Source: Candidatus Peregrinibacteria bacterium
GTDB taxonomy: Bacteria; Patescibacteriota; Gracilibacteria; UBA1369; LOWO2-01-FULL-3
Length of the DNA stretch: 64,000 nucleotides
NCBI GenBank assembly: GCA_026395515.1
Contig: JAPLYN010000005.1
Coordinates: forward strand, 111,521-175,520
Direction of reading: 5' to 3'
Shown: in pieces, positions 16,344 through 54,260 of the stretch
Numbering within the stretch: the first letter of the stretch is position 1
Layout of the letters: the number at the start of each line of letters is the position of its first letter
Program-made: the position numbers and the translations under genes
Notes under the pieces: model-generated
Databases searched by the model: none
What the model was told of the DNA's origin: nothing
The model's input: the letters and a program-made list of their open reading frames with translations, nothing else

Positions 16344-16345
16344 AA

Positions 16346-20645: not shown

Positions 20646-20683
20646 GTCGCTATCTCAAAGCCCTTTATAATAAAGCCATTTTC

Positions 20684-20692
20684 TGGTATAAT
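20684..20692 (+). promoter_or_regulatory. Extended -10 promoter element TGGTATAAT
   Basis: TGGTATAAT lies 25 nt upstream of the ATG at 20718. Confidence 0.5.
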
Positions 20693-20717
20693 TACCAGAT
20701 AGATTTATAATTCAAAC

Positions 20718-21641
20718 ATGGCAAATTTCGCTTATTACGATCAACTAGAGCTTAAAATTAATTCCCTTATCACAGAGAGGAAGTTCAAAGAAGCTTTCAA
20801 CGTCTGCAAGGAAAGTATTTTGCAATACCCGAATGAATCACGATTTCCAAAAATCAAAGAAAGAATCGAAAAAGCCGTAGAAGAGGAAAACGAAAATATT
20901 ATCAAAAATAAATTAGAAGAAATAAAAGCAATGTGGAAGGAAGAGAAGTTTTTGGAAATTCTCAAAACATTAAAGAATTTACTAGCAGCTTCTCCGAACA
21001 ATTCAAAATTAAAAGGATTGTATACAGATGCTGAAAAGGAATACAGAAAACAGTACGAGAAACTCAACGAAAAATTCAACAAAGATCAAAGAAAAAGACT
21101 GGACTCAGTACTAAAAGAAAATCCAAATCAATTGACGGAAGACCTCTACATACTCACAAAAGAAAATCCTGGAAACCAAAACGTAAAAGATTTAGTTGCA
21201 GAGTATGAGGAGAAATTAATTGCAAAAAAAATTGAAGACAAGAGTGAACTAATAAATTCAAATAAATACGATGTCATCGAAAATTTTCTTGATGAATTGA
21301 GAAAAATAAACAAATTCAGCAAGAAAATACAGGATGTAGAAATGGAATTAAAAAAGAGAAAATTAGAAGGAGAAATAGTTCAAACAAAGGAATTCGTTTA
21401 CGGAGGAGAAAAACATTTAGACACATTAGTTAAACTAAAGAAATTTGATAAAGCCATGCAGGCAGCTCAAGAAATACTCAAAGTCGATCCCCAAAACGAA
21501 GAAGCAAAAAGAGTTCTAGAAAACTCCGCAAAAGAATACAAAGATCAACTAAAGGATCTCGCTGCAGAATCAATCAATAAGAACTTTCAAAGTCTTAAAT
21601 CTGAATACGAACAGAACAAAACAAAGTTTATAAAAATCTAA
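20718..21641 (+). CDS. Hypothetical K/E-rich coiled-coil/TPR-like protein
   Basis: 307-aa ORF with an ATG start and a strongly helical charged sequence. No enzymatic motif. Confidence 0.55.
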   Translation: MANFAYYDQLELKINSLITERKFKEAFNVCKESILQYPNESRFPKIKERIEKAVEEENENIIKNKLEEIKAMWKEEKFLEILKTLKNLLAASPNNSKLKGLYTDAEKEYRKQYEKLNEKFNKDQRKRLDSVLKENPNQLTEDLYILTKENPGNQNVKDLVAEYEEKLIAKKIEDKSELINSNKYDVIENFLDELRKINKFSKKIQDVEMELKKRKLEGEIVQTKEFVYGGEKHLDTLVKLKKFDKAMQAAQEILKVDPQNEEAKRVLENSAKEYKDQLKDLAAESINKNFQSLKSEYEQNKTKFIKI

Positions 21642-22717
21642 GCTTTAGCTCCAGATTTTAATTTATAAACACGACGTCCAATACGTGCAAACTTTCTATC
21701 ATTCTTTAGAGCAAGAACAATAGTGATTTTTTTCACGTCACGTTGCTTCAAAACAAGATCAACAATCTTATCTTGTTCAAGTTCTTTATGTTCCTTGAGA
21801 ATTTTTTCAATAACTTCCGCGACAGTGCCTTTCTCGTAGCCCCATTCAGAAAGAGCATAAATACCACGACCAATCAAAACGAATTGATCATGTCTTATAA
21901 GTTCATTATGTACGGCCTGAACATTTACCCTACGAGTATCAAAGTCAGCTTTCCCAATTCTTTCCGCTATAGCAGAAAAGTGCATCGGCGCTTTATCACT
22001 CCTAAGAACAAACATAATTTTATCTCTCAACGTTCTTGGATGAATATGTCTCCATTCCAATAAACCAACCAAATCATCATCAAGAATTGTTAATCTCTTA
22101 TCAATCTCAATCAAAGATTTTACCTTGAGAAGATCAAAATCATTTTGCTTAAGATGGCTTCCTAAATCTTCTTGAATTCTATCAATTTTCTTAACATCTC
22201 CATATTTATGAAGCTGATTAATTAATTGATCAGAAACATGCTTTAAGGAATATTCCGGAATTGCTTTGTCTCTTACGTAAGGATAAAAATTTATAGTATT
22301 TCCGACACACTCCAAATTGTCATGCAAAGCCAAAGATAAATTCAAATTATTAACATCGACAGCAACATCCTTTGGCAAAATTTCTGACAACTCAGAAATC
22401 AAGTTTTCAGATTTCATAATACCTCCATGCTTTCTCACAATACCTCCAACAAACTCATGGAGACTCTTCAAAGCAGTATTGAAAACATTTCGACGCATCT
22501 TTGCTAAAGCATTCTTTTCGATCTGTCTCACACGTTCTCGTGTAACAGAAAACTCTTGGCCGATTTCTTCCAAAGTAGCTCTATTGACACCAGCTAAAGC
22601 AAAACGCTTAGTGATGACAACTTTTTCTTTATCAGAAAGAAGCAGCAAAAGGTTTTCTACGAGGTTATGCAAATCAGTAACTGTTTGAACAACAGGCGCA
22701 ACTTGCGGGCTATACAT
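21638..22717 (-). CDS. Sigma-70 region-4 HTH + HARE-HTH protein, paralog of 12824..13936
   Basis: LEEIGQEFSVTRERVRQIEKNALAKMRR plus MHFSAIAERI...VHNELIRHDQFVLIGRGIYAL. Collinear with the first copy. Confidence 0.6.
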   Translation of the reverse strand: MYSPQVAPVVQTVTDLHNLVENLLLLLSDKEKVVITKRFALAGVNRATLEEIGQEFSVTRERVRQIEKNALAKMRRNVFNTALKSLHEFVGGIVRKHGGIMKSENLISELSEILPKDVAVDVNNLNLSLALHDNLECVGNTINFYPYVRDKAIPEYSLKHVSDQLINQLHKYGDVKKIDRIQEDLGSHLKQNDFDLLKVKSLIEIDKRLTILDDDLVGLLEWRHIHPRTLRDKIMFVLRSDKAPMHFSAIAERIGKADFDTRRVNVQAVHNELIRHDQFVLIGRGIYALSEWGYEKGTVAEVIEKILKEHKELEQDKIVDLVLKQRDVKKITIVLALKNDRKFARIGRRVYKLKSGAKA

Positions 22718-22831
22718 AGGAATTAGGAGGTTAAGAGGATTAACTTAACGTGATTATAAAAACATTTTGGAATTATATCAAAAAAATGGTGTTGAGTATC
22801 TTGCCAAAATAGTTTGTTGTTTAATAGTTTT

Positions 22832-23143
22832 TCAAATTTCAAAAATATATCCTATACAATGCACAGTGCGAATAACGTCGTAGCCAAGACGTTTAACCAA
22901 TGTCTTGCGAAGTAAAGCAACGTGAACATCCAAAGTATTAGTTGGCCAACAAATATTACGATCCCAAACTTCTTCCAACAACTGTGTACGCGTTACCACC
23001 GACCCAGAGTGTCTAACAAAACAAGCAAATAATTCAAATAACTTATTCCTCAAAACCAAAACATCTTTATCAAAGAAAACTTTTCTTGAAGAAAAATCCA
23101 ATTTAATTTTGCAGAATTCAGAATGCACAATATTAGTATTCAT
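22832..23143 (-). CDS. Stand-alone OmpR/PhoB-type winged-helix DNA-binding protein (no receiver domain)
   Basis: The sequence TRTQLLEEVWDRNICWPTNTLDVHVALLRKTL...VIRTVHCIGYIFEI matches Trans_reg_C. The listed start at 23254 is TTG within AT-rich DNA, so I use the ATG at 23143. Confidence 0.6.
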   Translation of the reverse strand: MNTNIVHSEFCKIKLDFSSRKVFFDKDVLVLRNKLFELFACFVRHSGSVVTRTQLLEEVWDRNICWPTNTLDVHVALLRKTLVKRLGYDVIRTVHCIGYIFEI

Positions 23144-23278
23144 AGAAAAATAGTTAAATAGTATCTTTAATTCTGAAACTAAAATGAAATTTAGCAAATA
23201 AACAAAATTGAAATAAAAAAAAGTAGCAGCACCAAAGGAAAAACACCATATCAAAAGTGTTGTCTAAGTCCGTTCAAC

Positions 23279-23758
23279 ATGTTAACTTTAGACCACAATA
23301 AATCCAAAAGAGTGAAAGTTGTATTACAAAAATCCGGTTCAGCACGCGTAGAAATTGAAAACAAAATCCACGGTGAAATTAAAAGCGGCATTGTCCTGCT
23401 TATTGGTATTACTCACGACGACAACGAAAAAGACATTGAATACCTAGTTGAAAAAATTACTAATCTAAGAATTTTTGAAAGCGAAGGAAAATATTTTGAA
23501 AAATCTATCCTAGAAGTTAGCGAGGAAATTCTCGCAATTTCCCAATTCACCTTATATGCCAGCTGTCGAAAAGGACGCAGACCAGATTTTATCGAAGCTG
23601 CAAAACCAGAGGTGGCAAAACCACTTTACGACAAGTTTATAGAGAAACTAAAAGAAAAAGGAATAAAAGTTCAAACAGGAGTTTTTGGGGCTGATATGCA
23701 AGTACACCTTGTCAACCAGGGTCCAATTACGCTAATTATTGATAGCAAATTAAATTAA
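23279..23758 (+). CDS. dtd: D-aminoacyl-tRNA deacylase
   Basis: GIVLLIGITHDD, SQFTLYA, RPDF and NQGPITLIID motifs. An alternative GTG start at 23312 would give a canonical N-terminus. Confidence 0.9.
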   Translation: MLTLDHNKSKRVKVVLQKSGSARVEIENKIHGEIKSGIVLLIGITHDDNEKDIEYLVEKITNLRIFESEGKYFEKSILEVSEEILAISQFTLYASCRKGRRPDFIEAAKPEVAKPLYDKFIEKLKEKGIKVQTGVFGADMQVHLVNQGPITLIIDSKLN

Positions 23759-23769
23759 TTACCATTTAT

Positions 23770-25155
23770 ATGGCTCAAACAGTGATGGAGAAAGTGGCAG
23801 CATTATGCAAACGAAGAGGTTTTATTTTCCCTGGCTCAGAAATATACGGAGGCTTCGCAAATACCTGGGATTACGGTCCATACGGATGCGAGCTCAAGAA
23901 AAATATCAAAGAATTTTGGTGGAAAACTTTCGTGCGTGAAAGAGATGACATGGTAGGTCTTGATGCCGGGATTTTAATGAACCCAAAAGTTTGGGAAGCA
24001 TCTGGTCACGTAGCTTCATTTTCCGATCCACTAATTGACTGCAAAAAGTGTAAGGAAAGAATTAGAGGAGATAAATTAATTGAAGAACATCTAGGTATTG
24101 AAGCAGCTGTAGGAAAGTCATTAAAAGAAGTTACAGAAATTATCACTGCAAATAAACTCAAATGTCCAAAATGTGGAACTAGTGACTTTACTGAAGCTCG
24201 TTCATTCAATCTAATGTTTAAGACTCACCAAGGAGTAGTAGAAGAAACTTCTACAGCCGTATACCTCAGACCAGAGACAGCTCAAGGTATTTTCGTAAAT
24301 TTCAAAAACGTTGTACAAAGCTGCCGCCAGAAAGTTCCATTCGGAATTGGTCAGATTGGTAAAGCCTTCAGAAATGAAATCACACCTGGAAATTTCACTT
24401 TCCGTACTCGCGAATTCGAGCAGATGGAAATTGAATATTTTGTTTCCCCAAAAGACAAAGCTGAAATTAAGAGAATTTTCGACGATTGGAAAAAAGTTTG
24501 TTGGCAATGGTACCTAGACCTAGGAATCAAGAAAGATAGCCTTCGCTACAGAGAACATGAAAAAGATGAGTTATCTCATTACTCCAGCATGACTTTCGAT
24601 ATTGAATACGAATTTCCATTTGGTTGGGGAGAATTGATGGGATTAGCTTACAGAGGAGATTTCGACCTTACTCAACACCAAACTTTCTCTAAAGAAAAAT
24701 TAGAATACCTAGATCCATTCACTAATGAGAAATACATCCCTCACGTAATTGAACCATCATTTGGTGCCGACAGAACTGTACTTATTACGCTCATTAATGC
24801 CTACGAAGAAGACATGGTAGAAGGTGAACCACGTACAATAATGCACTTTGACCCTAAGATAGCCCCAGTAAAAGCCGCTATTTTCCCACTAATAAAGAAA
24901 CCAGAGTTAATAAAAATAGCCGACGACATCTTCAAGACCCTCAGCAAGAGATGGAATGTAGAATATGATGAATCTGGAGCCGTAGGTAAGCGCTACCGCC
25001 GTCAGGATGAAATAGGTACACCTTATTGCATTACTGTAGATTTCGACACGATAGAGAAGGATAATATGGTTACGATTCGTGATCGCGACACCACGAAACA
25101 AGAAAGAATTGCCATAGCAGATATAGAGAAATTCCTCGAAGAAAAGCTAAAATAG
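23770..25155 (+). CDS. glyQS: Glycyl-tRNA synthetase (dimeric class II type)
   Basis: The sequence RGFIFPGSEIYGGFANTWDYGPYG and the motifs FRNEITPGNFTFRTREFEQMEIEYF and PSFGADR. Confidence 0.95.
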   Translation: MAQTVMEKVAALCKRRGFIFPGSEIYGGFANTWDYGPYGCELKKNIKEFWWKTFVRERDDMVGLDAGILMNPKVWEASGHVASFSDPLIDCKKCKERIRGDKLIEEHLGIEAAVGKSLKEVTEIITANKLKCPKCGTSDFTEARSFNLMFKTHQGVVEETSTAVYLRPETAQGIFVNFKNVVQSCRQKVPFGIGQIGKAFRNEITPGNFTFRTREFEQMEIEYFVSPKDKAEIKRIFDDWKKVCWQWYLDLGIKKDSLRYREHEKDELSHYSSMTFDIEYEFPFGWGELMGLAYRGDFDLTQHQTFSKEKLEYLDPFTNEKYIPHVIEPSFGADRTVLITLINAYEEDMVEGEPRTIMHFDPKIAPVKAAIFPLIKKPELIKIADDIFKTLSKRWNVEYDESGAVGKRYRRQDEIGTPYCITVDFDTIEKDNMVTIRDRDTTKQERIAIADIEKFLEEKLK

Positions 25156-25179
25156 AGAGAGTTGACAAAACTAGCATTA

Positions 25180-25212
25180 GGGCCCCTCTACACTTGTAAG
25201 AAGGGCCTTTTT
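25180..25212 (+). terminator. Possible intrinsic terminator after glyQS
   Basis: GGCCC (25181-25185) pairs with GGGCC (25203-25207) and is followed by TTTTT. The loop is large, so this is a weak call. Confidence 0.35.
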
Positions 25213-25213
25213 C

Positions 25214-25222
25214 TGATATAAT
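25214..25222 (+). promoter_or_regulatory. Extended -10 promoter element TGATATAAT
   Basis: TGATATAAT lies 22 nt upstream of the ATG at 25245. Confidence 0.5.
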
Positions 25223-25244
25223 AATCAGATAAATAAAAACACAA

Positions 25245-27968
25245 ATGAATCAGGAGTTCTTTAATAACATCTGGATCTACATCCAAAACAATCCTAAATT
25301 ACTAGCTATCTGGGCTGCAGAAATAGTGGCAGGAGCGTGGTTTTTGTTGCATATGATCAGATTCGTCTATCAACATCACCAATCAAAACATTTGGTTTTC
25401 TTGAAGGTAATTCTTCCAAGAGAAGATTCTCAAAAAGATAAAGAAAAAGAAACTGAAAAAGATTTTAGAGAAAAAATTGCGATCATGACTCAGTTCTACC
25501 GCAATCTATCGGAGACTAGAGAGCTAAACCCTATCAATAGATTAAAAGTAATGCTCTTTAAGCATAATATTTTCTCATTTGAGTTAGTAGCTCATGACAA
25601 AGTCATAGATTTCTACGTTACAACTCCTGCCTATTATAAAGAAATCGTTGAGAAACAGATTACCTCATATTATCCATCAGCTGACATCCAGCCTTGCGAA
25701 CCATACGAATTAGTAAAAACAGGATGCAAAATGAAAGGCTTTTACGCCTATGAAGAAAGACCATATTGGTTTCCAATCAAAACTTACAAAACAATTGAAA
25801 ACGATCCATTAAACGATCTTACAAACATTTTTACTCGTTTAGCAGACGAGGAAACAGCAGCAATTCAGATCGTAATTAGACCTAAAGACGACAAATGGGC
25901 GAAAAAAGCTGAAGCTTTCGGTGAAGCTTTTTTTAAAGGAAAACCAAAAGGTGAAGGTTTCAAACTTCCATTCCTTGGACCAGTTCTTAATGTATTCAAA
26001 GGAATCTTTCTTGGTTACGAAAAGATGGAAATAGAACCAAAAGCTGACGGAGGTGGTTACGTGAGAATGCTTCAATCAAAAGAAGAAGTCGCAAAAGCCA
26101 TTGGTGTAAAGTCCTCAGGCGCTGGTTTTGACACGGTGATTAGACTCCTCAGTTCAGGAAAAACAGAAGAGCGAGCTGAAGAAATTTCCAATAACATCGT
26201 GGTATCTCTAAATCTTTTCAAAGATAGTTCATCCAACTGGTTTCAAACCAGAAGAATTTTCTTTATTGATCCATTAAATGACTTAATTTTTCTTCATAAT
26301 TTTAAAAACCGTTACCTAGACAAGCACTGGGTAGTTTTTGGAGAAAAGATGTCGCTAATGAGTGAAGACGAGCTCGCTAGTCTTTATCATTTCCCAAACA
26401 GCAAATACAACTACACTCCAAACATTCGTTGGTTGGATTACAAGGTACTTCCAGCTCCAGTAGACATGCCTACTTCAGGATTATTACTTGGATACAATCT
26501 ATTCCGTGGTATCAAAAAAGAGATATTCATGCAGAAACAAGATCGTTCTCGTCATCACTACATCATAGGTAAATCTGGTTCAGGTAAATCCGCCCTTTTA
26601 TCTTTCATGGCCAGACAAGACGCCATAAACGGGGAAGGTTTCTGCATCATTGATCCACATGGAGATCTTGTGGAAGAAGTACTTGATTATATTCCAAAGG
26701 AAAGAGCTAAAGACGTGATTATTTTTGATCCTGCCGACGTTGAAAGACCTATGGGTTTAAATATCCTTGAAGCAACAACTCCAGCAGAAATGGATCTTGC
26801 TGCCTCACAATCTACAGAAATTTTTATTAAACTTTTCGGTGATGAAATTTTTGGACCTCGTATCCAGCATTACTTCCGCAATGCTTGTTTAACTCTTATG
26901 GAGGACCATGAAGAAGGCGCAACACTTATCGACGTACCTAGAATGTTCGTTGATGATGCCTTCATGAAATACAAAGTTAAAAAGGTTACAAATCCAGTAG
27001 TTAAATCTTTCTGGGAACATGAATATGCCAATACTGGTGAACGTGAAAGACAGGAAATGATCCCGTATTTCAGTGCCAAATTTGGTCCGTTTATTACCAA
27101 TACCATCATGAGAAATACCATTGGTCAGAAAAATTCTGCCTTTGATTTCCGTAAGGTAATGGATGAAGGAAAGATTCTCTTAGTAAAACTTTCCAAAGGT
27201 AAAATTGGTGATTTAAATACTCAGCTTTTAGGTCTCGTAATGGTAGCCCGTATTCAGATGGCCGCTATGAGTCGTACCGATATTGAAGAAAAAGATCGTC
27301 GCGATTTCTTCCTCTACGTGGATGAGTTCCAAAACTTTGCCACAGACAGTTTCTGTTCAATCCTATCTGAGGCCAGAAAGTACCACCTCAGCTTAATTAT
27401 GGCGCATCAGTATATTAATCAGTTGGTTACAAGCAAATTTGGTAGCACTTCTACCGGTATCCGTGATGCCGTATTCGGTAACGTTGGTACTATCTCTTCA
27501 TTTAAAGTAGGTGCCGAAGACGCCGAATATCTTGCAAAAGAATACGCCCCACTTCTTACAGAACAGGACGTACTCAGCATCTCAAACTATAAGATGTACA
27601 TGAAACTAAACATAAACAATACCACATCTAGACCATTCTCAGTGGGTACAATCTGGGATGAAAGTAAGAAGAACCCTAAGGTGGGTAAAATCATCAGAGA
27701 ATACGCTAGATTGAAACATGCTCGTAAGAGAGAATTCGTAGAACAAGAAATCGTATCAAGAATTGGTATCGACACCAATTCTGCTCCTATAGATACCAGC
27801 AAATTACCAAGCCAACCAGGCACTGCACAGCCCGCAGCCGAGAATCCAATGGCTCAAATAATGGCCGCTCAACAGGGTGCAACAGCAGCAACTCCTGCAG
27901 AACCTACAGCTGCAGCACCAGTTCAAAATCCTGCTCCAACAGAGCCAACACCTCCAACCAAGGCCTAA
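25245..27968 (+). CDS. VirD4/TraD/TraG-type coupling ATPase, paralog 2, with Ala/Pro/Gln-rich C-terminal tail
   Basis: N-terminal TM helix, Walker A GKSGSGKSA, IIDPHGD, Walker B FFLYVDEFQNF. Collinear with 4604..7078. Confidence 0.75.
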   Translation: MNQEFFNNIWIYIQNNPKLLAIWAAEIVAGAWFLLHMIRFVYQHHQSKHLVFLKVILPREDSQKDKEKETEKDFREKIAIMTQFYRNLSETRELNPINRLKVMLFKHNIFSFELVAHDKVIDFYVTTPAYYKEIVEKQITSYYPSADIQPCEPYELVKTGCKMKGFYAYEERPYWFPIKTYKTIENDPLNDLTNIFTRLADEETAAIQIVIRPKDDKWAKKAEAFGEAFFKGKPKGEGFKLPFLGPVLNVFKGIFLGYEKMEIEPKADGGGYVRMLQSKEEVAKAIGVKSSGAGFDTVIRLLSSGKTEERAEEISNNIVVSLNLFKDSSSNWFQTRRIFFIDPLNDLIFLHNFKNRYLDKHWVVFGEKMSLMSEDELASLYHFPNSKYNYTPNIRWLDYKVLPAPVDMPTSGLLLGYNLFRGIKKEIFMQKQDRSRHHYIIGKSGSGKSALLSFMARQDAINGEGFCIIDPHGDLVEEVLDYIPKERAKDVIIFDPADVERPMGLNILEATTPAEMDLAASQSTEIFIKLFGDEIFGPRIQHYFRNACLTLMEDHEEGATLIDVPRMFVDDAFMKYKVKKVTNPVVKSFWEHEYANTGERERQEMIPYFSAKFGPFITNTIMRNTIGQKNSAFDFRKVMDEGKILLVKLSKGKIGDLNTQLLGLVMVARIQMAAMSRTDIEEKDRRDFFLYVDEFQNFATDSFCSILSEARKYHLSLIMAHQYINQLVTSKFGSTSTGIRDAVFGNVGTISSFKVGAEDAEYLAKEYAPLLTEQDVLSISNYKMYMKLNINNTTSRPFSVGTIWDESKKNPKVGKIIREYARLKHARKREFVEQEIVSRIGIDTNSAPIDTSKLPSQPGTAQPAAENPMAQIMAAQQGATAATPAEPTAAAPVQNPAPTEPTPPTKA

Positions 27969-27971
27969 GTA

Positions 27972-28000
27972 TTGACATTTTAAGTATTCCATGTTATATT
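27972..28000 (+). promoter_or_regulatory. Consensus sigma70-type promoter P1 facing into the GC-rich island
   Basis: TTGACA (27972-27977), a 17-nt spacer ending in TGT, then TATATT (27995-28000). It begins 4 nt after the VirD4-like stop codon. Confidence 0.6.
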
Positions 28001-28186
28001 TCGGTGCTTTTGACGTATACATCTTTGTTGCGTTAGAAGTCGACCCTTGAAAACTTGTTGTAGAGAGCCATCTGTCTTTCAAAATGACATAATGCCTGCC
28101 GCAAGGTTGAGCTAGTGTACTGAAAGCCGGATCCTCTCTCTACCACTAAATGATTTTTGTTTAATCAATATTTACTACTACTTCAA

Positions 28187-28247
28187 GATCAGTAGGCCCT
28201 GCAAGCTGGGAAATGGGCAATTTTCCAGTTCGCAAAGCCTACTGATC
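28187..28247 (+). repeat. Nested inverted repeat / RNA hairpin in the leader of the first GC-rich gene
   Basis: Perfect 11-bp arms GATCAGTAGGC (28187-28197) and GCCTACTGATC (28237-28247) enclose a 9-bp hairpin. The hairpin is CTGGGAAAT (28206-28214) / ATTTTCCAG (28220-28228), with one G-U that exists only on the + strand. Confidence 0.6.
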
Positions 28248-28338
28248 CCCTCAAGGGAGATGGATGGCGAAGCATCCGCGGAGAACCCTAGTCTGGGCGA
28301 TCCAAAGATGGAGGCATATGCATGTGCCTTACAGTAAC

Positions 28339-28350
28339 GATTCTAGAATC
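28339..28350. promoter_or_regulatory. Perfect 12-bp palindrome (operator-like) just upstream of the RBS of the GC-rich gene
   Basis: GATTCTAGAATC is its own reverse complement. It ends 14 nt before the ATG at 28365, next to AAGGA. Confidence 0.4.
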
Positions 28351-28364
28351 AAAGGACACAGATC

Positions 28365-29072
28365 ATGCGTACCAAGCTTCTCACCACCCTCGTCGCCGCG
28401 GCCGTTCTGGCCTGCGGCATCTTCCTCCACGTCGAGATCCGCGCCAACAGCGCCCTCGCCAAGGAAACCCCCTCCACCAACCCGCAGCCCGCGCAGGTCA
28501 AGGTCGCGGCCCCGCAGCAGGACAACGTCGTCTTGACCGGTGCCCCCGCCGAACCCTCTCCGCCCGCCGCCGCCCCGCAGCCCTCCGACCCGACCCCCGA
28601 GCCGAAGAAGTGCGAAGACAACGACGGCTGCTCTGGGTCCGATCTGTGCGATCGCGGCGTGTGCATCACCGACCCCTGCACCAACGTCGTCTTCTCCAGC
28701 GACGACAGCTATGGGTGCAAAATGGCCCAGATGCTCCACTACCACGGAGTTCAGGACGGCGACGCCCTCAACTACCTGATCAAGCTGGGTCACGGCAAGC
28801 ACGCGGACAAGAAGCTCGAGCGCTTCAGCAAGGAGCTGGAAGCCCGCGCCCGCCGCGTATACTGGCAGACCAAGGGCTACGACATCGACGCCGCAAGCGT
28901 CGCTGCTTTGAAGCCCTCGGAATTGCGGGAAAAGATGGAAGACACAGCAACCATCGGCGATCTTATGCACTTGACGGTCCGCATGGACCAGAAAGTGTAT
29001 GCGGCCACCCACAAGAAGGCCGACCAGAGCACCGACGTTGAGCCCGTCAAGGAGGAGACCACCAAGAAGTAG
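28365..29072 (+). CDS. Secreted protein of foreign (high-GC) composition: signal peptide, Pro-rich linker, 6-Cys module, helical C-terminal domain
   Basis: Strong GC3 periodicity in this frame only. SD AAGGA lies 8 nt before the ATG. Signal peptide MRTKLLTTLVAAAVLACGIFL...ANSALA. Cys cluster CEDNDGCSGSDLCDRGVCITDPC...YGC. Confidence 0.8.
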   Translation: MRTKLLTTLVAAAVLACGIFLHVEIRANSALAKETPSTNPQPAQVKVAAPQQDNVVLTGAPAEPSPPAAAPQPSDPTPEPKKCEDNDGCSGSDLCDRGVCITDPCTNVVFSSDDSYGCKMAQMLHYHGVQDGDALNYLIKLGHGKHADKKLERFSKELEARARRVYWQTKGYDIDAASVAALKPSELREKMEDTATIGDLMHLTVRMDQKVYAATHKKADQSTDVEPVKEETTKK

Positions 29073-29196
29073 CGCTGGCTAGAGGCGTACACAGCTTCGC
29101 CAGCTGACCCCGCCAGAGGTTTTCCGGTAAACCAAAAGCCGCCCGGGTAAAAGAGGCGACAACAAAATCATTCAGGAGGAAGCTCGAGAGGAAACA

Positions 29197-29226
29197 CCCC
29201 GTTGCATCATGCGGCGGGGTTGTTTT
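29197..29226 (+). terminator. Intrinsic terminator of the first GC-rich gene
   Basis: CCCCGTTGC / GCGGCGGGG forms a 9-bp stem (two G-U pairs) with loop ATCAT, followed by TTGTTTT. Confidence 0.65.
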
Positions 29227-29231
29227 CCATA

Positions 29232-30689
29232 TTATCTTTTATCTAAAGCGTCCAATTCTCCCTTGTAGCCATCTAAACGTTTTTTCCAATATATTTTATC
29301 CGAATCACCCTTCTCCTTACGATCTTTTATCAAATTTTCATCTTCACCAGTAATATCAAACAAAAACTTCGCTGAACTCACCAGCTGCTTCAAAACATCA
29401 ACACGATTTTCACCAGCCTTAATTGGTTCTAGCATTTCCACAATTTCTTCATGACAAAACCTCATTGTATTAAGACGATCAAACGTGTCAGGATTATTTT
29501 TATCAGCATAATTACTAATTCTCAATCTTAACAGAGTAAATAATTTTACATATTTATAAGATTCAGGATTACTAAAATCATTATAAAATTCACTATATAA
29601 ACCCATTGCATCATGAGAAGTATTTCTCAAATTTTCAATTTCACCACCAGTACCAAATAATTTATTCATTCGTGTTTCATACTGAGAATCATTTTCTCCA
29701 TTAGCTTTAGTCAACCAATCCTTCCTTTCCAAAAACTCTATACCTCTTTCTTTATTATTCAAAAAATTATCAAAGACTTCTATTCCTTTCACAAAATCCT
29801 CATGATCAACATCAGCAATTTCATATTTAGCGAAAAATTCAGGAGTGCCAATCACTGGAATTTTATCAGCTTCTAGAGGTTTTGCAGGTGGCACGTCATT
29901 TTTTTTACCAGCATCACCAGGATTAGGATCAACTTGAGGCTTCTCGTCTGGAACAGCAACATTACCTGGACCGGGAGCAGGTTTATTTTTAGCAATCACT
30001 GCATAAGCAAATCTATCCTTCTCACCTTCTTTTTCACCCTTTCCTTTACCAGCCACTAATTTAATTTTTTTAACAGGAATATCCTTCAGCTGAAAAGTAT
30101 CCACATTTGCCAAATCCAAAGGAGAGTAAAGATTTTTAATCCTATCAAAAGCCAAGACAAAGTTAAAAAAACCATTAGGTCCATAAATCATCTGTTCACC
30201 ACCTTTATTTCTCACAATATTCCATATTTCTTTTTTTACATTTTTAGAGAAATCCTTCGGATCCATTCCATCCAATTTTTTAAAAGTTTCAAAAGCAGGA
30301 GATAGGGAATTGTACCATTCCAAAGTAGGCTCATCAAAAAGAGGCTTAAGCTTATCAATCTGAGAAGAACTTTCAGCAAATGGCTTATACCATTTAGTCT
30401 CATGCCACTTCGTTTCAAAACCAGTTGCATCGACCGAACCAACTAAGACATTAGGCTCAGCCGCATTGACCTCAGTAGACAACTTCTTATCCACCTTAGA
30501 ATCTCCTAAATCAAAAAATGCTGGTTTTATTTCAGCTTGAGAATCCAACTCTTCTTTCAGTTTAGTTCTATCATTAGAACCTTTAATCCCCATCAATTCC
30601 TTTGCCCAACCCAAACTTTCATCAGTCAAAATATTCTGACGTCTAGCCTCAGGTTTTTTCTCTAAATTTTGTGGTATTTCTCCTGCCAT
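29232..30689 (-). CDS. Orphan 485-aa protein, ultra-AT-rich, no signal peptide, central Pro/Lys-rich linker
   Basis: ATG start and a native-type TGGTATAAT promoter. Hand count gives 13/60 G+C in 29521-29580. No motif recognised. Confidence 0.7.
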   Translation of the reverse strand: MAGEIPQNLEKKPEARRQNILTDESLGWAKELMGIKGSNDRTKLKEELDSQAEIKPAFFDLGDSKVDKKLSTEVNAAEPNVLVGSVDATGFETKWHETKWYKPFAESSSQIDKLKPLFDEPTLEWYNSLSPAFETFKKLDGMDPKDFSKNVKKEIWNIVRNKGGEQMIYGPNGFFNFVLAFDRIKNLYSPLDLANVDTFQLKDIPVKKIKLVAGKGKGEKEGEKDRFAYAVIAKNKPAPGPGNVAVPDEKPQVDPNPGDAGKKNDVPPAKPLEADKIPVIGTPEFFAKYEIADVDHEDFVKGIEVFDNFLNNKERGIEFLERKDWLTKANGENDSQYETRMNKLFGTGGEIENLRNTSHDAMGLYSEFYNDFSNPESYKYVKLFTLLRLRISNYADKNNPDTFDRLNTMRFCHEEIVEMLEPIKAGENRVDVLKQLVSSAKFLFDITGEDENLIKDRKEKGDSDKIYWKKRLDGYKGELDALDKR

Positions 30690-30712
30690 ATTTTTGTTTT
30701 AAATATCATAAC

Positions 30713-30721
30713 ATTATACCA
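30713..30721 (-). promoter_or_regulatory. Extended -10 promoter element TGGTATAAT for the orphan gene
   Basis: The minus strand reads TGGTATAATGTT, 23 nt upstream of the ATG at 30689. Confidence 0.55.
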
Positions 30722-30754
30722 AAAAAACAGCTTTAAATAAAGCCAAACGAGCAC

Positions 30755-30797
30755 GTCAAAGCCGCGGAATCCTTTGTGGGGAAACCGCGGCATTGAC
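30755..30797 (-). terminator. Strong hairpin downstream of the GC-rich lipoprotein gene (terminator or island-boundary structure)
   Basis: 13-bp arms GTCAAAGCCGCGG (30755-30767) and CCGCGGCATTGAC (30785-30797) with one mismatch. There is no immediately adjacent T-tract on the minus strand. Confidence 0.45.
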
Positions 30798-30815
30798 TCG
30801 CATCACTGCGAAACG

Positions 30816-31379
30816 TCACTGAGGACAGGCGATCGGCACGAACTCTCCGACTCGAACACGGTAGCACTTGCCAGCCGCATTCGAGTCGGAAAGAGACGCC
30901 TTCTCCAGCCCATCTACCATGAGCGAAAACTTGGCAGAACCGAAGACGACACGCCAGCCGTCAGGGTACACAGACCCAGACAACTTGGCGAAACCGCCTT
31001 CACCGAAGACCGTGACCTTGCCGTCCACGAACGATTCCTGCGCCTTGTGGGGCACCGAACGCTCGCAACGGGTTGGATCGATCTTGCACATCTTGTCACG
31101 GTAGCTGGCAGCTTCAGCCTCGCGCACAATGGCCGCGTTGCCGAGATCCGCAGCGTACTGTTGGGCAGCCTTGAGACGCGCCTGAGCCGCCTGATCAGCC
31201 TTCTGTTGAGCAGCCAAAGCCGCTTCCTTCTCCCGACGCTCGTTGGCCTGGCTTTCGCCGTAGTTGGCCTCCGAGAGTTGGAGCTGGTCGAGGACGTTGG
31301 GCTGAACACGTTGGGCCGCACCACAGGCCGAGAGGTATAGAGCAACCAAGAGAACCAGAAACGAACGCGTGGCGTTCAT
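30816..31379 (-). CDS. Lipoprotein of foreign (high-GC) composition
   Basis: SD GGAGG lies 5 nt before the ATG. Signal peptide with lipobox LSAC (MNATRSFLVLLVALYLSACG). GC3-rich frame with an Ala/Gln-rich helical segment. Confidence 0.8.
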   Translation of the reverse strand: MNATRSFLVLLVALYLSACGAAQRVQPNVLDQLQLSEANYGESQANERREKEAALAAQQKADQAAQARLKAAQQYAADLGNAAIVREAEAASYRDKMCKIDPTRCERSVPHKAQESFVDGKVTVFGEGGFAKLSGSVYPDGWRVVFGSAKFSLMVDGLEKASLSDSNAAGKCYRVRVGEFVPIACPQ

Positions 31380-31491
31380 GGTAACCTCCGAGAAAAGAAG
31401 TAGTGTAGCAGTTATAAAACAAGGATCTTTAAAGTTTTCATCAGCTTGCGCATTGCTGGCGAATTACTTGGGAGCCGGCATCCATCATTCC

Positions 31492-31539
31492 GGCAGTCCT
31501 ATTTCATCAATTATAAATAATTAACACAACAGGACCGCC
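31492..31539 (-). repeat. RNA hairpin in the leader of the lipoprotein gene
   Basis: The minus strand has GGCGGTCCT ... AGGACTGCC, a 9-bp stem with a 30-nt AT-rich loop. Its single G-U pair exists only on the minus (transcribed) strand. A second hairpin, GCCGG/CCGGC, follows at 31474-31494. Confidence 0.5.
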
Positions 31540-31731
31540 AGAGTTCAAAATAAGCACAAAAATTAAAGTGACATTTACAGTTTAGCAAGCCAATATTTCT
31601 TCCCTTTAAGAGTTGTTTCATCCACCTAAACGGAAAAACAAGCTACATACGAAGAGAAGAAAGTTGGCTTCTAAAATGCTAGATTTCAATGATCAAATCA
31701 CAAGGAAATAAACACCCAATGATAGCCAAGA

Positions 31732-31760
31732 AATATAACACCAAGGTAACACCTTGTCAA
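31732..31760 (-). promoter_or_regulatory. Consensus sigma70-type promoter P2 facing into the GC-rich island
   Basis: The minus strand has TTGACA (31760-31755), a 17-nt spacer ending in TGT, then TATATT (31737-31732). The hexamers and TGT are the same as in P1. Confidence 0.55.
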
Positions 31761-31780
31761 CAGCGCCAATCTATAAACTG

Positions 31781-31857
31781 TGGTGTCAAGGGGGAGATTT
31801 GAACTCCCGACCTCCGGGTTATGAATCCGACGCTCTAACCAACTGAGCTACCCTGAC
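31781..31857 (-). tRNA. tRNA with CAT anticodon, elongator type (Met, or Ile2 if lysidine-modified)
   Basis: 77 nt. G1-C72 is paired, the anticodon loop is TTCATAA, the T-arm is GGGAG-TTCAAAT-CTCCC, and CCA is encoded. Confidence 0.85.
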
Positions 31858-31881
31858 ATATAAAAAGAAAAAACCTAAATT

Positions 31882-31956
31882 TGGTTGCGGGGGATGGATT
31901 CGAACCACCGACCTCCGGGTTATGAGCCCGACGAGCTGCCTCTGCTCTACCCCGCG
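31882..31956 (-). tRNA. Initiator tRNA-fMet (CAT)
   Basis: CGCGGGG...CCCCGCAACCA with a C1:A72 mismatch. Three G-C pairs close the anticodon stem (TCGGG-CTCATAA-CCCGG). Confidence 0.9.
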
Positions 31957-32019
31957 ACGTAAGCTCAGGAAAAATACTGTAAAAGATGACGAAAGTCAAA
32001 CAAAGCCCTTTCAATAAAC

Positions 32020-32424
32020 CTATCTTCCAAAAAAGAAATCCCACCACTGTTCAGGATTAGTCATTTTACTCCTTCGTGAAAGAGTAGTAACAGCAGCATC
32101 ATCACTATTGGGATCTTGCTGTGGGTTAGTAACATTTTCAGACAAAATTATCACTTCTTCACCTCTATTTACTAAACCTAAATTCTGTTTAGCAATTTTA
32201 TCTATATATTCTTCAGAGATGAAATAAAGATAATCAGCATTTTTCTTTTTATTTTCATCCTCAATAACAGAATTTTCTTTTTGAAAAGACTCAATTACTA
32301 AATCAACTTGATAACTATTGTAGATATTTTTAGTGAGCGAATACAGCAAATAACTCACAAGCGCAAACTCGACTATGATGATTAATTTAGTGAAATTTGA
32401 GGTATAGGAAAATCGGGATGACAT
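32020..32424 (-). CDS. FtsB/DivIC-like septum formation initiator
   Basis: A single TM helix, a coiled coil, and the sequence EEYIDKIAKQNLGLVNRGEEVII, which is typical of the family. Confidence 0.6.
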   Translation of the reverse strand: MSSRFSYTSNFTKLIIIVEFALVSYLLYSLTKNIYNSYQVDLVIESFQKENSVIEDENKKKNADYLYFISEEYIDKIAKQNLGLVNRGEEVIILSENVTNPQQDPNSDDAAVTTLSRRSKMTNPEQWWDFFFGR

Positions 32425-32482
32425 AAAAATCTTTTAAACGTCGGAACTTTAGCATAGAATCTAAACTACCAAAAGCAAAACT

Positions 32483-33769
32483 ATGTCACTTTTAGATAAA
32501 AAATATTTTCATTTCATTGGCATCGGCGGAATTGGAGTTTCCAGTCTCGCACAGATTTTACATGCCAAAGGGAAAACCGTATCTGGATCAGATAACTACT
32601 CCTCAGAATTAACCAAAAGTCTCAAGAAAAATGGGATAAAAGTTTTTGAAGGACATGATGAAAAAAATGTTAATAAAAAAATTGAGCTGGTAGTTTATTC
32701 ACCAGCGGTACCAATGAGTAACCCTGAGATAAAGAAGGCGAAAGAATTAAACATAAAATGTCTATCTTACCCAGAAGCATTAGGAGAATTAAGTAAAGAA
32801 TATTTCACAATTGCCATCGCCGGTACTCACGGGAAATCCACCACAACTGCAATGACCTCTCTTATTCTCGCAGAAGGGAAATTAGATCCCACGGTAGTTA
32901 TCGGAACAAAACTTCGCGAATTCAAAAATAAGAATTTTAGAGTAGGGAAGAGCAAATATTTAGTAATAGAAGCTTGTGAATATCGCCGCTCTTTTCTCCA
33001 TTTCAAGCCAAACATACTAGTAATAACAAATATCGAAGCCGAACATTTAGACTACTATAAAGACCTCAAAGATTACCAAGAAGCCTTCCACGACATTGCA
33101 AAAAAAGTATCTAAAGATGGTTATATAGTAGCGAATAGTAAGGAAAAAAATCTAGAACCAATCTTAGATAATTGCTCAGCTCAAATAATTAAATGGAAAG
33201 AAAAAGTAAAAGCTAAACCGGGAATTCCTGGCGAATTCAATTTAGTAAATGCCACAAATGCTGCAATGGTTGGAGAACTACTTGGTATCTCAGAAAAAAA
33301 TATTAATTCTGCCATAAAAAAATATAAAGGTAGCTGGCGTCGCATGGATTACAAAAAGAAAAAACTAGGCAAAACTCAATTCATCGACGACTACGGACAT
33401 CATCCTACGGAAGTAAGAGTAACCCTTGCAGCCATCAGAGAAAAGCATCCAGAAGCCAAAATTCTTTGCGTATTTCAACCTCATCAGCACAGCCGTACAA
33501 AAATGCTTTTGAAAGAATTTGGTCACGCATTCAATTCAGTAGACCAGGTAATTATTCCAAATATTTATCAAGTTCGTGATAGCGAAGAAGTTGTGAAATC
33601 AATTTGCGTCGATGATTTAGTGAATGAAATAAAAATTCAGCAGCCTCAAGTAAAAAACGGAGAAAGTCTGGAGAAAACTGCTATATATATTAAAGAAAAT
33701 CATAAAAAATACGACATCGTAGTAACGATGGGAGCAGGGGATATTAGCAAGATTTACAAACTCCTTTAA
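32483..33769 (+). CDS. murC: UDP-N-acetylmuramate--L-alanine ligase
   Basis: HFIGIGGIGVSSLAQIL, GTHGKSTTTAM, and the Mur ligase middle and C-terminal domains. Confidence 0.9.
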   Translation: MSLLDKKYFHFIGIGGIGVSSLAQILHAKGKTVSGSDNYSSELTKSLKKNGIKVFEGHDEKNVNKKIELVVYSPAVPMSNPEIKKAKELNIKCLSYPEALGELSKEYFTIAIAGTHGKSTTTAMTSLILAEGKLDPTVVIGTKLREFKNKNFRVGKSKYLVIEACEYRRSFLHFKPNILVITNIEAEHLDYYKDLKDYQEAFHDIAKKVSKDGYIVANSKEKNLEPILDNCSAQIIKWKEKVKAKPGIPGEFNLVNATNAAMVGELLGISEKNINSAIKKYKGSWRRMDYKKKKLGKTQFIDDYGHHPTEVRVTLAAIREKHPEAKILCVFQPHQHSRTKMLLKEFGHAFNSVDQVIIPNIYQVRDSEEVVKSICVDDLVNEIKIQQPQVKNGESLEKTAIYIKENHKKYDIVVTMGAGDISKIYKLL

Positions 33770-35160
33770 ACCTTTTTCCAAATAGTACCTTGTGGCTTAT
33801 CCTCAAGCACAATTCCCTTTTCTAATAGCTGATCTCTAATAAAATCTGACGTTTTAAAATCCCTATTTTTACGAGCAAAATTACGTTTTTCAATTAATTT
33901 TTCTACGTCAGAATCGATAGAAGTTTCCTCCACAAAAATCACTCCCAAAACTTTATCAACCAATTGCAAGAAATTAAGGACGGCACTCAATTCAATTTTA
34001 TTCAAAGTTGAATTATTCATCATCACATTAACTTCCTTCACAAATTCATACACCGCACCCAAAGCCCCGGAAGTATCAAAATCATCATCCATTACACCTT
34101 CAAATCTAGAACGAGCCACATTGATAGCAGCAGTTAAATTAACAGAAACAACTCCATCTTCAGCTGCATCCAAGAGCGCATTCAAATTTCTCACAAAATC
34201 ATGCAACCTAGAAAGTCCTGCCTTCGCCTGATCCAGCAACACATTAGAAAAATTCACAGGGTTTCGGTAATGCGTTTGAAGGAACATAAATCTCACCACT
34301 TTTGGATCATATTTTTCGAAAATTTCTTTCAAAGTGAAAAAATTCCCCAAACTCTTACTCATTTTTTCATTATCCACATTGATAAATCCATTGTGCATCC
34401 AATATTTAGAAAAAGATCCATGTCCAAAAACAGGTTCAGACTGAGCAATTTCACACTCGTGATGGGGGAATGTTAAATCCAATCCACCACCGTGAATATC
34501 AAACTTCTCACCTAAATGCTTCCAAGTCATCGCACTACATTCAATATGCCAACCAGGACGACCTTCACCCCAAGGACTAGACCATGAAGGTTCACCTTCT
34601 TTTTTGAATTTCCATAAAACGAAGTCATAAGGACTCTTTTTTCCATCCTTCACTTCCACACGAGAACCAACTCTCAAATCCTCTAACTTTTGCTTTGAAA
34701 GCTTTCCATATTCTTTAAATTTAGCCACTTCATAGTAAACTCCATCATCAAGTACATAGGTGAAACCCTGTTTCTCCAAGCCCTTAATCAACTCAATCAT
34801 CTCTGGCACATGTTCCGTCGCCAAAGGCTGCACATCAGGCACCATTACACCCAAAGCCCCATAATCCTTAGCGTAAATTGGAATAACTTTATCACTCAAC
34901 TCTTTCACGGAAATATCTTCCTGCTTAGCCCTAGTAATCATCTTGTCATCAATATCAGTGTAATTTGAAACATACTTTACTTCGTATCCTCTATAAATAA
35001 AATATCTTCGAATAACATCAAAGGACACAGCACTTCTTCCATGGCCCAAATGAGCGCTGTCATACACAGTAGGTCCACATACGTAGATACCAACTTTTCC
35101 TTCTTCTAAAGGTACGAAATCCACCTTCTTTGCCGTCAATGTGTCATATATCTTTATCAT
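33766..35160 (-). CDS. cysS: Cysteinyl-tRNA synthetase
   Basis: CGPTVYDSAHLGHGRS (HIGH) and KMSKSLGN (KMSKS). Confidence 0.95.
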   Translation of the reverse strand: MIKIYDTLTAKKVDFVPLEEGKVGIYVCGPTVYDSAHLGHGRSAVSFDVIRRYFIYRGYEVKYVSNYTDIDDKMITRAKQEDISVKELSDKVIPIYAKDYGALGVMVPDVQPLATEHVPEMIELIKGLEKQGFTYVLDDGVYYEVAKFKEYGKLSKQKLEDLRVGSRVEVKDGKKSPYDFVLWKFKKEGEPSWSSPWGEGRPGWHIECSAMTWKHLGEKFDIHGGGLDLTFPHHECEIAQSEPVFGHGSFSKYWMHNGFINVDNEKMSKSLGNFFTLKEIFEKYDPKVVRFMFLQTHYRNPVNFSNVLLDQAKAGLSRLHDFVRNLNALLDAAEDGVVSVNLTAAINVARSRFEGVMDDDFDTSGALGAVYEFVKEVNVMMNNSTLNKIELSAVLNFLQLVDKVLGVIFVEETSIDSDVEKLIEKRNFARKNRDFKTSDFIRDQLLEKGIVLEDKPQGTIWKKV

Positions 35161-49418: not shown

Positions 49419-49480
49419 AGCATTTTTTAATACTTAACAGATGGATAAACTAACATAAAGCAAACACATCGTCAATAAGT

Positions 49481-54239: not shown

Positions 54240-54260
54240 TAAAGAGCTAATGAGCCCAAA

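Follow-up and report, generated by a model that had tools for sequence, protein, structure and literature searches.

What keeps two genes rich in G+C inside an AT-rich bacterial genome, on either side of a gene that is as AT-rich as its surroundings? The question is raised by a 64-kb stretch of the Candidatus Peregrinibacteria assembly GCA_026395515.1 (contig JAPLYN010000005.1, positions 111,521–175,520 of the forward strand), referred to below as the window, in which two open reading frames (ORFs) for putative exported proteins, here called A and B, bracket an AT-rich gene (the middle gene) and lie between a gene for a VirD4-like ATPase and a pair of tRNA genes. An initial annotation of this stretch had read A and B as recently imported, unameliorated genes, possibly taken from a high-GC neighbour or host. 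The analysis presented here leads to a different answer, which we hold with moderate confidence: A and B would be a long-resident pair of exchanging surface proteins, and either selection or GC-biased conversion would keep their genes GC-rich. An old, maintained state is preferred over a recent import because the matching locus of relatives holds orthologues with an equally high G+C content.

Base composition of the locus

Sliding-window analysis gives a background G+C content of about 0.36, which rises to 0.57–0.74 across approximately 28300–29200 and to 0.58–0.64 across approximately 30750–31400, with values of 0.26–0.41 between these two blocks. The G+C content of ORF A is 0.64 (0.62, 0.44 and 0.87 at first, second and third codon positions, the last being termed GC3) and that of ORF B is 0.60 (0.67, 0.46 and 0.68), compared with 0.34 for the middle gene (GC3 0.24) and 0.39 for the VirD4-like gene (GC3 0.34); GC3 lies between 0.19 and 0.37 in all 43 remaining long ORFs of the window. 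Both ORFs are thus clearly set apart by their computed GC3, and the initial annotation, which had located the shift in synonymous sites, is borne out on this point, as are its four hand counts of G+C (41/60, 40/60, 22/60 and 13/60), which are exact on recount. Elsewhere in the window, 150-nt segments with a G+C content of at least 0.5 are confined to one tRNA and two small bumps. A rise to 0.53–0.58 (150-nt segments) was noticed at 54001–54250 (+), at the 3' end of a STAS-domain gene (53658–54239); its GC3 is only 0.21, and it is therefore an effect of amino-acid composition.

Codon choice in A and B avoids the native favourites AGA, TTA, ATA and AAA and favours GCC, GAC, ACC, GTC, AAG, CAG and CGY, and the amino-acid content of the two proteins (Ala, Pro, Arg, Gly) resembles that of a high-GC genome. 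Codon adaptation of highly expressed genes was ruled out as the cause, because the genes of EF-Ts and ribosomal protein S2 are AT-rich at third positions (GC3 of 0.205 and 0.289, respectively).

Persistence of the GC-rich state in related loci

Related loci were located through homologues of A and B in Logan contigs (SRR22388xxx and SRR161102xx), in JGI entries 3300013123/36/38 and 3300017990, in a metagenome-assembled genome (MAG) from ENA and in NCBI GCA_040960175.1. Of the 30 B-family proteins in alignment A6, 15 had a readable genomic context, 7 of the 20 representatives among them. Eleven related loci (designated by L numbers) could be read in this way, and although genomes devoid of both genes could not have appeared in such a search, B is found in all of them and A in most, with a GC3 of 0.65–0.93 for B and 0.68–0.96 for A against 0.26–0.43 for the neighbouring genes. 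Wherever the contigs suffice (L004, L005, L009, L011–L013 and L016) the gene order is tRNA-Met, B, (middle gene, A), VirD4-like gene. In the group L004–L010 the middle gene has a GC3 of 0.28–0.30 and the flanking genes one of 0.26–0.37. The arrangement of each locus is given in Table 1. In one of them, L139, a contig of 3900 nt, the A-like and B-like genes are flanked by genes with a GC3 of 0.29–0.31, including a DUF5674 gene, and the contig carries neither a middle nor a VirD4-like gene; the A/B transcription unit is modular, each gene of this tandem pair having its own leader. An apparent disruption of the A gene in L005 was rejected as a gene-calling difference, the region being 100% identical to L006. 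A metagenome scan with the A2 patterns found no relatives, and a scan of genome collections for B recovered one MAG contig only.

The lineages compared are well separated. Synonymous divergence (dS) of the flanking genes amounts to 0.7–0.9 between the window and L004 or L005; the VirD4-like protein is 91% identical to that of the window in L004 and L005, 85% in L013 and 77% in L016, and the four-fold degenerate sites of its gene differ by 37% in L004, 49% in L013 and 63% in L016. At the corresponding sites of B the window differs from L013 and L016 by 61–73%, which amounts to saturation, and all copies are GC-rich. Because these sites are saturated between lineages and the copies nevertheless stay GC-rich, the composition is stationary and not decaying. 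Synonymous third-position changes in B were further polarised by parsimony in three non-overlapping triplets (207 G/C sites and 78 A/T sites), yielding 36 changes from G/C to A/T and 20 in the reverse direction. Expressed per site, these rates correspond to an equilibrium GC3 of about 0.60, compared with 0.35–0.44 for native genes, and the share of A/T-to-G/C changes (0.36) exceeds the 0.17–0.23 expected at native rates, with a binomial P of 0.0006–0.02 that varies with the control gene. Since parsimony in GC-rich sequence is biased in a way that inflates the G/C-to-A/T counts, the true equilibrium is probably higher.

Table 1. Coordinates of the features of the locus in the 64-kb window, copies of the two leaders in related loci, and arrangement of the related loci (SD, Shine-Dalgarno sequence; nt, nucleotides; aa, amino acids)
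Feature or locus	Position	Strand	Description
VirD4-like ATPase gene (type IV coupling protein, T4CP)	25245..27968	+	907 aa; conserved neighbour, native composition
Promoter A	27972..28000	+	TTGACA-N17-TATATT, TG extended -10; 11/12 consensus positions
Leader A	28007..28364	+	about 358 nt, start deduced from the promoter; SD AAGGA at 28352-28356
ORF A	28365..29072	+	235 aa, predicted to be exported
3' region of A	29073..29231		G+C 0.56; terminator-like hairpin 29196-29220 between the convergent A and middle genes
Middle gene	29232..30689	-	485 aa; native composition, no signal peptide, Lys/Gly/Pro low-complexity linker
Promoter of middle gene	30710..30721	-	native-type extended -10 TGGTATAATGTT; leader of about 20 nt
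3' hairpin of B	30755..30797	-	GTCAA-GCCGCGG...CCGCGGC-TTGAC
ORF B	30816..31379	-	187 aa, putative lipoprotein with LSAC lipobox; ends in TGA
Leader B	31380..31725	-	about 346 nt, start deduced from the promoter; SD GGAGG at 31385-31389
Promoter B	31732..31760	-	TTGACA-N17-TATATT, TG extended -10; 11/12 consensus positions
tRNA pair	tRNA-Met 31781-31857; initiator tRNA-fMet 31882-31956	-	directly upstream of promoter B; conserved locus boundary
Leader A copies	L004:13037-13420, L009:3533-3919, L016:3560-3968, L139:341-498
Leader B copies	L004:9654-10000, L005:122-469, L011:446-781, L013:9654-9993, L016:143-530, L017:5-220, L139:1788-1941
L004, L009, L005-L008, L010			DivIC, tRNA-Met pair, B, middle, A, VirD4-like, GlyRS (short contigs partial); GC3 of B 0.72-0.78, of A 0.80-0.85
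L011-L013 (more distant)			B directly convergent on VirD4-like gene; GC3 of B 0.65-0.72; A absent
L016 (VirD4-like 77% identical)			full B, middle, A arrangement; GC3 of B 0.80, of A 0.92, of middle gene 0.33
L017			B and A-like genes convergent; GC3 of B 0.72, of A 0.68
L018			B, then a gene with native-type promoter; GC3 of B 0.86; A not reached
L139 (SRR22388232 contig)			A-like and B-like genes in tandem on the same strand, each with own leader; GC3 of B 0.93, of A 0.96

Promoters and structured leaders

Analysis of the sequences upstream of the two ORFs reveals expression signals that differ from those of the remaining genes. The promoters assigned to A and B are the two best matches to the consensus in 27900–31800 and two of only four matches of at least 11/12 positions in the whole window; that of A is kept in 6 of 6 aligned loci, and that of B has a TTGACn -35 box in 8 of 8, with a -10 box that is a variant of TATAnT. 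The SD sites, AAGGA-8nt-ATG for A and GGAGG-5nt-ATG for B, are as originally described and are conserved across loci, whereas among the other starts of the window, taken mechanically as the first start codon of each ORF, 41 of 43 are without even the 4-mer AGGA and only 2 have one nearby. Many native starts follow a TGnTATAAT box at a distance of about 20–30 nt, which points to leaders that are short and A/T-rich.

Between promoter and start codon, both genes carry long leaders for which a conserved fold is predicted. Leader A comprises a long-range stem formed by GTAGAGAG...CTCTCTAC, a hairpin with arms of 28 nt at 28187–28247 and a palindrome, GGCATGCGCATGCC, close to the SD site; it is 88–90% identical to its counterparts in L004, L009 and L006 and 58% identical to that of L016. 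RNAalifold predicts 89 pairs for it, 17 of them with compensatory changes, and it folds better than 100 of 100 shuffled sequences (z-score -5.3). Leader B, located between tRNA-Met and ORF B, has the invariant cores GGAAGAAATATTGGCTTG, TGCCGGAATGATGGATGCCGG and GCAATGCGCAAGCTGAC and is 93.5–94% identical in L004, L005, L009 and L010, 89% in L011 and L012 and 56–68% in L013, L016 and L017. Its fold likewise surpasses 100 of 100 shuffles (z-score -4.4), and for its 63 predicted pairs, in a structure derived from the same alignment that was scored, 95.9% of the cells are paired as against 34–52% in slid controls, and compensatory changes occur in 23 pairs as against 4–8 in these controls. Identity of the leaders (88–94%) is thus retained between the window and related loci while the four-fold sites of the flanking genes differ by 32–37%, and recognisable cores persist in L013, L016, L017 and L139. 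Leader B is a candidate new cis-regulatory RNA, and both leaders may be regulatory.

Leaders A and B are not related, and no further copy of either was found in the window; searches with nhmmer recovered one copy of leader A per locus as well as one upstream of the A-like gene in L139. Comparison of both leaders with Rfam 15, at gathering and at permissive thresholds, returned only weak generic hairpin or miRNA-like matches far below the gathering scores, and a 16-mer taken from leader B was too unspecific to be of use, no locus fetched with it fitting the leader profiles. An upstream ORF in leader A was rejected on inspection of the aligned leaders, its candidate ATG being replaced in L004, and a small ORF in leader B was rejected because the indels there are not multiples of 3. 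At the other end of the transcription units, the motif 'cgagaggaaa...ccccg' in the 3' region of A is common to the window and L016, and the hairpin that follows B is present in the window, L004, L005 and L010–L013, while in L139 its stem is altered on both sides.

Products of ORFs A and B

Both products carry the export features initially ascribed to them. Inspection of ORF A shows an N-terminus, MRTK-LLTTLVAAAVLAC-GIFL..., that has the characteristics of a Sec signal peptide, followed by a Pro/Ala-rich linker, six Cys residues (positions 83–118) and a helical C-terminal part. The copy in the window also fits a relaxed lipobox, VLAC; on inspection of the orthologues, some have FGC or LGC lipoboxes and others none. 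The AlphaFold2 (AF2) model of A is weak, with a predicted local distance difference test score (pLDDT) of 58. Searches of Pfam, NCBIfam, PHROGs and PADLOC with A returned sub-threshold noise only; Foldseek yielded no significant match in the PDB, and a likeness of 25 residues of the Cys module to a squash knottin inhibitor is non-significant. The family is tiny, with 9 clusters at E ≤ 0.01 among 5.8 billion clustered proteins.

ORF B begins with MNATRSFLVLLVALYLSAC|GAA, in which n-region, h-region and lipobox of a lipoprotein signal are all recognised by inspection, and the lipobox Cys is kept in at least 90% of 30 family members. Its AF2 model (pLDDT 85) consists of a long helix (residues 29–100), a loop between Cys98 and Cys105 and a seven-stranded β domain (118–183) that holds Cys172 and Cys185. 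No family was assigned by Pfam, NCBIfam or PHROG, and the PADLOC match is weak (E = 0.0011). Against PDB sequences and profiles the only match is compositional, between the Ala-rich helix and ATP synthase subunit b (E = 0.007), and a Foldseek search of the PDB gave no match with E < 0.3. This family, too, is tiny, with 12 clusters among the 5.8 billion proteins and 20 representatives among 1.84 billion. The two proteins are probably located at the cell surface and may have a role in contact with a host or prey.

Sequence diversity and allele exchange

The two proteins are hypervariable. A is only 31–35% identical to its positional orthologues, with a ratio of nonsynonymous to synonymous rates (dN/dS) of 0.6–0.8, and dN/dS of B is 0.2–0.34. 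The genealogy of B conflicts with that of its flanks: in the comparison of the window with L004, dS of B is 0.37 against 0.7–0.9 for the flanking genes, and between L004 and L005 it is 0.74 (63% identity) against 0.34 for the VirD4-like gene (98% identity). Part of leader A (approximately 28250–28330) is mosaic, one version being shared by the window and L009 and another by L004, L005 and L006. Taken together, these patterns indicate that alleles of both genes appear to be exchanged between lineages. In addition, one B-family member on a Logan contig of 2671 nt (P0008) resembles the L004 type at its N-terminus, L005 and L010 in its middle and L009 at its C-terminus; this mosaic look suggests intragenic recombination between allele classes.

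A proposed maintenance of the composition and its alternatives

The account that we favour is that of two transcription units long resident in a Patescibacterium of the class Gracilibacteria, each with a sigma-70 promoter close to the consensus, followed by a conserved, structured leader of about 350 nt, an SD site, a GC-rich ORF and a 3' hairpin; a persistent fixation bias toward G/C, acting on these units, would hold their G+C content high. Such a bias could arise from selection acting on the DNA or mRNA of specially expressed genes, from GC-biased conversion during allele exchange, or from both. Selection fits the sharp boundaries, which match the transcripts, and the special expression signals, and would need to be strong per site; GC-biased conversion fits the exchange of alleles and the partly GC-rich untranslated regions (UTRs). 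In this account B would be lipid-anchored and would present a small disulfide-bonded β head on a helical stalk, and A would be a secreted or lipid-anchored Cys-module protein that acts as its partner; both would act at the cell surface, where a host, a prey or an antagonist would exert diversifying pressure on them. Transcription would be strong, and the leaders would gate translation through an SD-dependent initiation unused by the other genes of the window.

Several points weigh against this account. A GC3 of 0.9 or more demands either very strong per-site selection or a conversion bias far beyond values reported for bacteria, and the sharp-edged AT-rich gene between A and B fits poorly with a conversion bias that is simply regional. 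The polarised substitution counts are small and based on parsimony, and are supportive rather than decisive. The mechanical choice of native starts could have hidden some SD sites. A and B may not interact, as L011–L013 have B without A, and the linkage to the VirD4-like gene may be mere conserved gene order rather than function, because the A/B pair lies elsewhere in L139.

It was considered whether alleles of the two genes are instead re-imported recurrently from a high-GC reservoir such as a host, by recombination anchored in the leaders and 3' hairpins. The decoupling of B genealogies from the flanks, the mosaic look of one allele and a codon usage like that of high-GC bacteria are in line with this proposal, and the conserved flanks could act as recombination anchors. 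On the other hand, B has only 20 representatives among 1.84 billion and A only 9 clusters among 5.8 billion proteins; all members with readable context (15 of the 30 B proteins in alignment A6) lie in AT-rich DNA, most of them with the lineage-specific leader, and any reservoir that shared those flanks would have to be part of this lineage. We regard recurrent re-import as unlikely.

With their high-GC codon usage, SD-dependent initiation, consensus promoters and long structured leaders, the units may be built for another expression regime than the rest of the genome. An equally slim chance is given to the idea that their composition is tuned to a partner cell, whether for expression in a high-GC host or as a match to it after delivery of DNA or RNA, or that a locus-specific process of conversion or mutation, undescribed in bacteria, drives them toward G/C. 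In either case, the two leader RNAs would be novel elements that regulate surface proteins of an epibiont.

A single ancient transfer followed by passive, slow amelioration, with no force maintaining the G+C content, would account for the resemblance to a high-GC genome at all three codon positions and in amino-acid content (Ala, Pro, Arg, Gly), and the raw synonymous counts (36 against 20) run in the direction it requires. It does not sit well with a GC3 of 0.7–0.8 in B at saturated four-fold sites (p = 0.61–0.73), nor with the values of 0.93–0.96 in L139 and 0.92 in L016; moreover, an equilibrium GC3 of about 0.6, not 0.35, follows from the per-site rates, and the parsimony bias noted above places the true value probably higher still. 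Passive amelioration is accordingly given a slight probability. A transfer in the distant past may have founded the A/B pair, but it leaves the persistence of the GC-rich state unexplained.

Recent acquisition of a cassette from a high-GC neighbour or host, inserted by the tRNA genes and as yet unameliorated, was the reading of the initial annotation. The foreign look of all three codon positions, a codon choice typical of high-GC bacteria, the adjoining tRNA genes and the presence of SD sites, unlike in native genes, speak in its favour. Equally GC-rich orthologues occur in every relative found, also at the syntenic locus, which the initial annotation had itself named as the comparison to be made, in lineages with a flank dS of 0.7 and more, 77–91% identity of the VirD4-like protein and four-fold sites at saturation; the import reading fails on this comparison. 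Neither the search of 5.8 billion clustered proteins nor that of 1.84 billion cluster representatives gave a homologue in a high-GC donor lineage of the kind that had been postulated, and the composition junctions coincide with conserved native leaders and promoters. The same annotation had seen no integrase and no direct repeats, and correctly so, as there is no mobility ORF within 25000–34000 and no direct repeats bracket the region. Recent import is thus very unlikely.

An assembly artefact, in which GC-rich pieces of another organism were joined into an AT-rich contig, as the very sharp composition steps and the end of one independent contig within ORF B (window position 31057) might suggest, can practically be dismissed. 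Exact-protein look-ups gave independent contigs from two runs (SRR20698644, equal to window 18365–31057, and SRR20698643, equal to 27159–29359 and 30489–31910 with 2 mismatches) that jointly cross all four composition junctions at 99.9–100% identity, upholding the initial argument against a chimeric contig. Separate assemblies of at least 8 further samples, drawn from several projects, show this architecture as well, and conservation of the leaders and promoters extends to the very edge of the GC-rich ORFs.

Neighbouring genes and lineage

The middle gene had been described as AT-rich with a native promoter, and indeed its TGGTATAATGTT box is conserved in L004, L005, L006 and L009. The gene occurs between B and A in some lineages only, being absent from L011–L013, L017 and L139; its product is 51–52% identical to those of L004 and L005 and 41% identical to that of L016. 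It evolves fast (dN/dS 0.3), with a tree that agrees with those of the flanks, and its product has no match in Pfam, NCBIfam, PHROG, PADLOC or the PDB.

The VirD4-like gene is syntenic in L004, L005, L009, L011–L013 and L016. Its product matches the Pfam families TrwB_AAD_bind (39.4 bits; cut-off 20.5) and TraG-D_C (23.8 bits; cut-off 22), contains the Walker A motif GKSGSGKS, and has DUF8128 on record for the same protein; a literature search on DUF8128 and on the run and MAG accessions returned nothing. The C-terminal tail of this protein (27700–27968, +), immediately before promoter A, is a low-complexity region rich in Pro, Ala, Thr and Gln with a G+C content of 0.47–0.49. A second gene for a TrwB_AAD_bind/DUF87 (T4CP-like) ATPase is found at 4604–7078 (-), about 18 kb from the first. 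No match to VirB4 or a relaxase was obtained among the ORFs scanned, about half of those in the window.

The tRNA at 31882–31956 has the hallmarks of an initiator, a C1:A72 mismatch and a GGG/CCC anticodon stem, in agreement with its earlier identification as tRNA-fMet. The tRNA pair upstream of B is also found in L004 and a single tRNA-Met in L012, and several related contigs start within a tRNA-Met gene.

With regard to the lineage, the 90%-identity protein cluster of the S2 gene (51980–52663, -) includes MBP9771128.1, "Candidatus Gracilibacteria bacterium". Despite this label, recoding of UGA (code 25) was rejected, and the standard genetic code is taken to be in use because long intact ORFs read through with it; TGA ends 4 of 45 ORFs, ORF B among them. 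Elsewhere in the window, two genes for cell-envelope proteins lie at 499–2169 (-) and 3196–4494 (-), one encoding an M23 peptidase with three SLH domains and the other a protein with peptidoglycan-binding domains. Genes for the synthesis of NAD (NadA, NadC) and riboflavin (RibD, RibBA) are located at 15375–17266 and 48276–50686, a biosynthetic capacity above that usual for Patescibacteria.

Significance

If the favoured account holds, what looks like a foreign island would be an example of a composition that is actively kept up in the face of the genome's mutation bias, in two unrelated genes and throughout a lineage, and it would make selection versus GC-biased conversion in bacteria directly testable. 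The locus also adds two new families of putative exported proteins and two new structured leader RNAs, likely at the host-contact surface of an uncultivated Patescibacterium; to our knowledge, almost nothing is known about adhesion and regulation at this surface. Furthermore, it calls for caution wherever island prediction takes a deviant composition as a sign of recent transfer.

Comparison with known systems

The locus resembles a tRNA-associated genomic island in that a deviant block encoding surface or exported proteins lies beside tRNA genes. It differs from such islands in that integrase and mobility genes (25000–34000) and att-like direct repeats are absent, in that, among the relatives located through homologues of A or B, it is not patchy but equally deviant throughout, with a composition that is stationary, and, with respect to horizontally acquired islands, in that the searches of 5.8 and 1.84 billion proteins gave no homologue outside AT-rich DNA of the same lineage. 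Most genomic islands are AT-rich relative to their genome, whereas the deviation here is toward GC.

GC-biased gene conversion in bacterial genes, reportedly treated by Lassalle et al. in 2015, is said to have effects of a few percent of GC3. High GC3 is associated with recombination here as well, and all codon positions and part of the UTRs are shifted; in contrast to what is recounted of that process, the difference amounts to 40–65 percentage points, the boundaries are sharp and the two GC-rich genes are separated by an AT-rich one.

For the neighbouring ATPase, a parallel exists in the 5,713 T4CP homologues described in Patescibacteria, most of which lie away from virB4 and have perhaps been exapted (PMC12102498). 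The VirD4-like gene, encoding a DUF8128 and TrwB_AAD_bind ATPase with no virB4 detected among the scanned half of the window's ORFs, resembles these orphan homologues; GC content is nowhere mentioned in that work, and VirB7 is the sole lipoprotein mentioned (PMC12102498).

The closest comparison concerns the vls antigenic-variation system of Borrelia, in which the locus of the variable surface lipoprotein VlsE has a G+C content of 49% in a genome of 28.6%, a state that is conserved across species despite sequence divergence and for which strong selection tied to gene conversion has been inferred (PMC11499132). The present locus shows no sequence or fold similarity to VlsE, and silent cassettes or paralogous fragments of A or B were not found by tblastn and blastn in the 64-kb window. 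There is no G-rich skew of the coding strand (-0.14 for A and +0.05 for B, with only 5 and 3 runs of three or more G, respectively). Whereas vls draws on an intragenomic archive, exchange here seems to take place between lineages, and the anomaly is shared by two unrelated families, each with a long, conserved, structured leader. As in vls, on the other hand, B is a putative lipoprotein gene with a G+C content of approximately 60–72% in genomes of about 36%, bears signs of allele exchange and has kept its composition across lineages.

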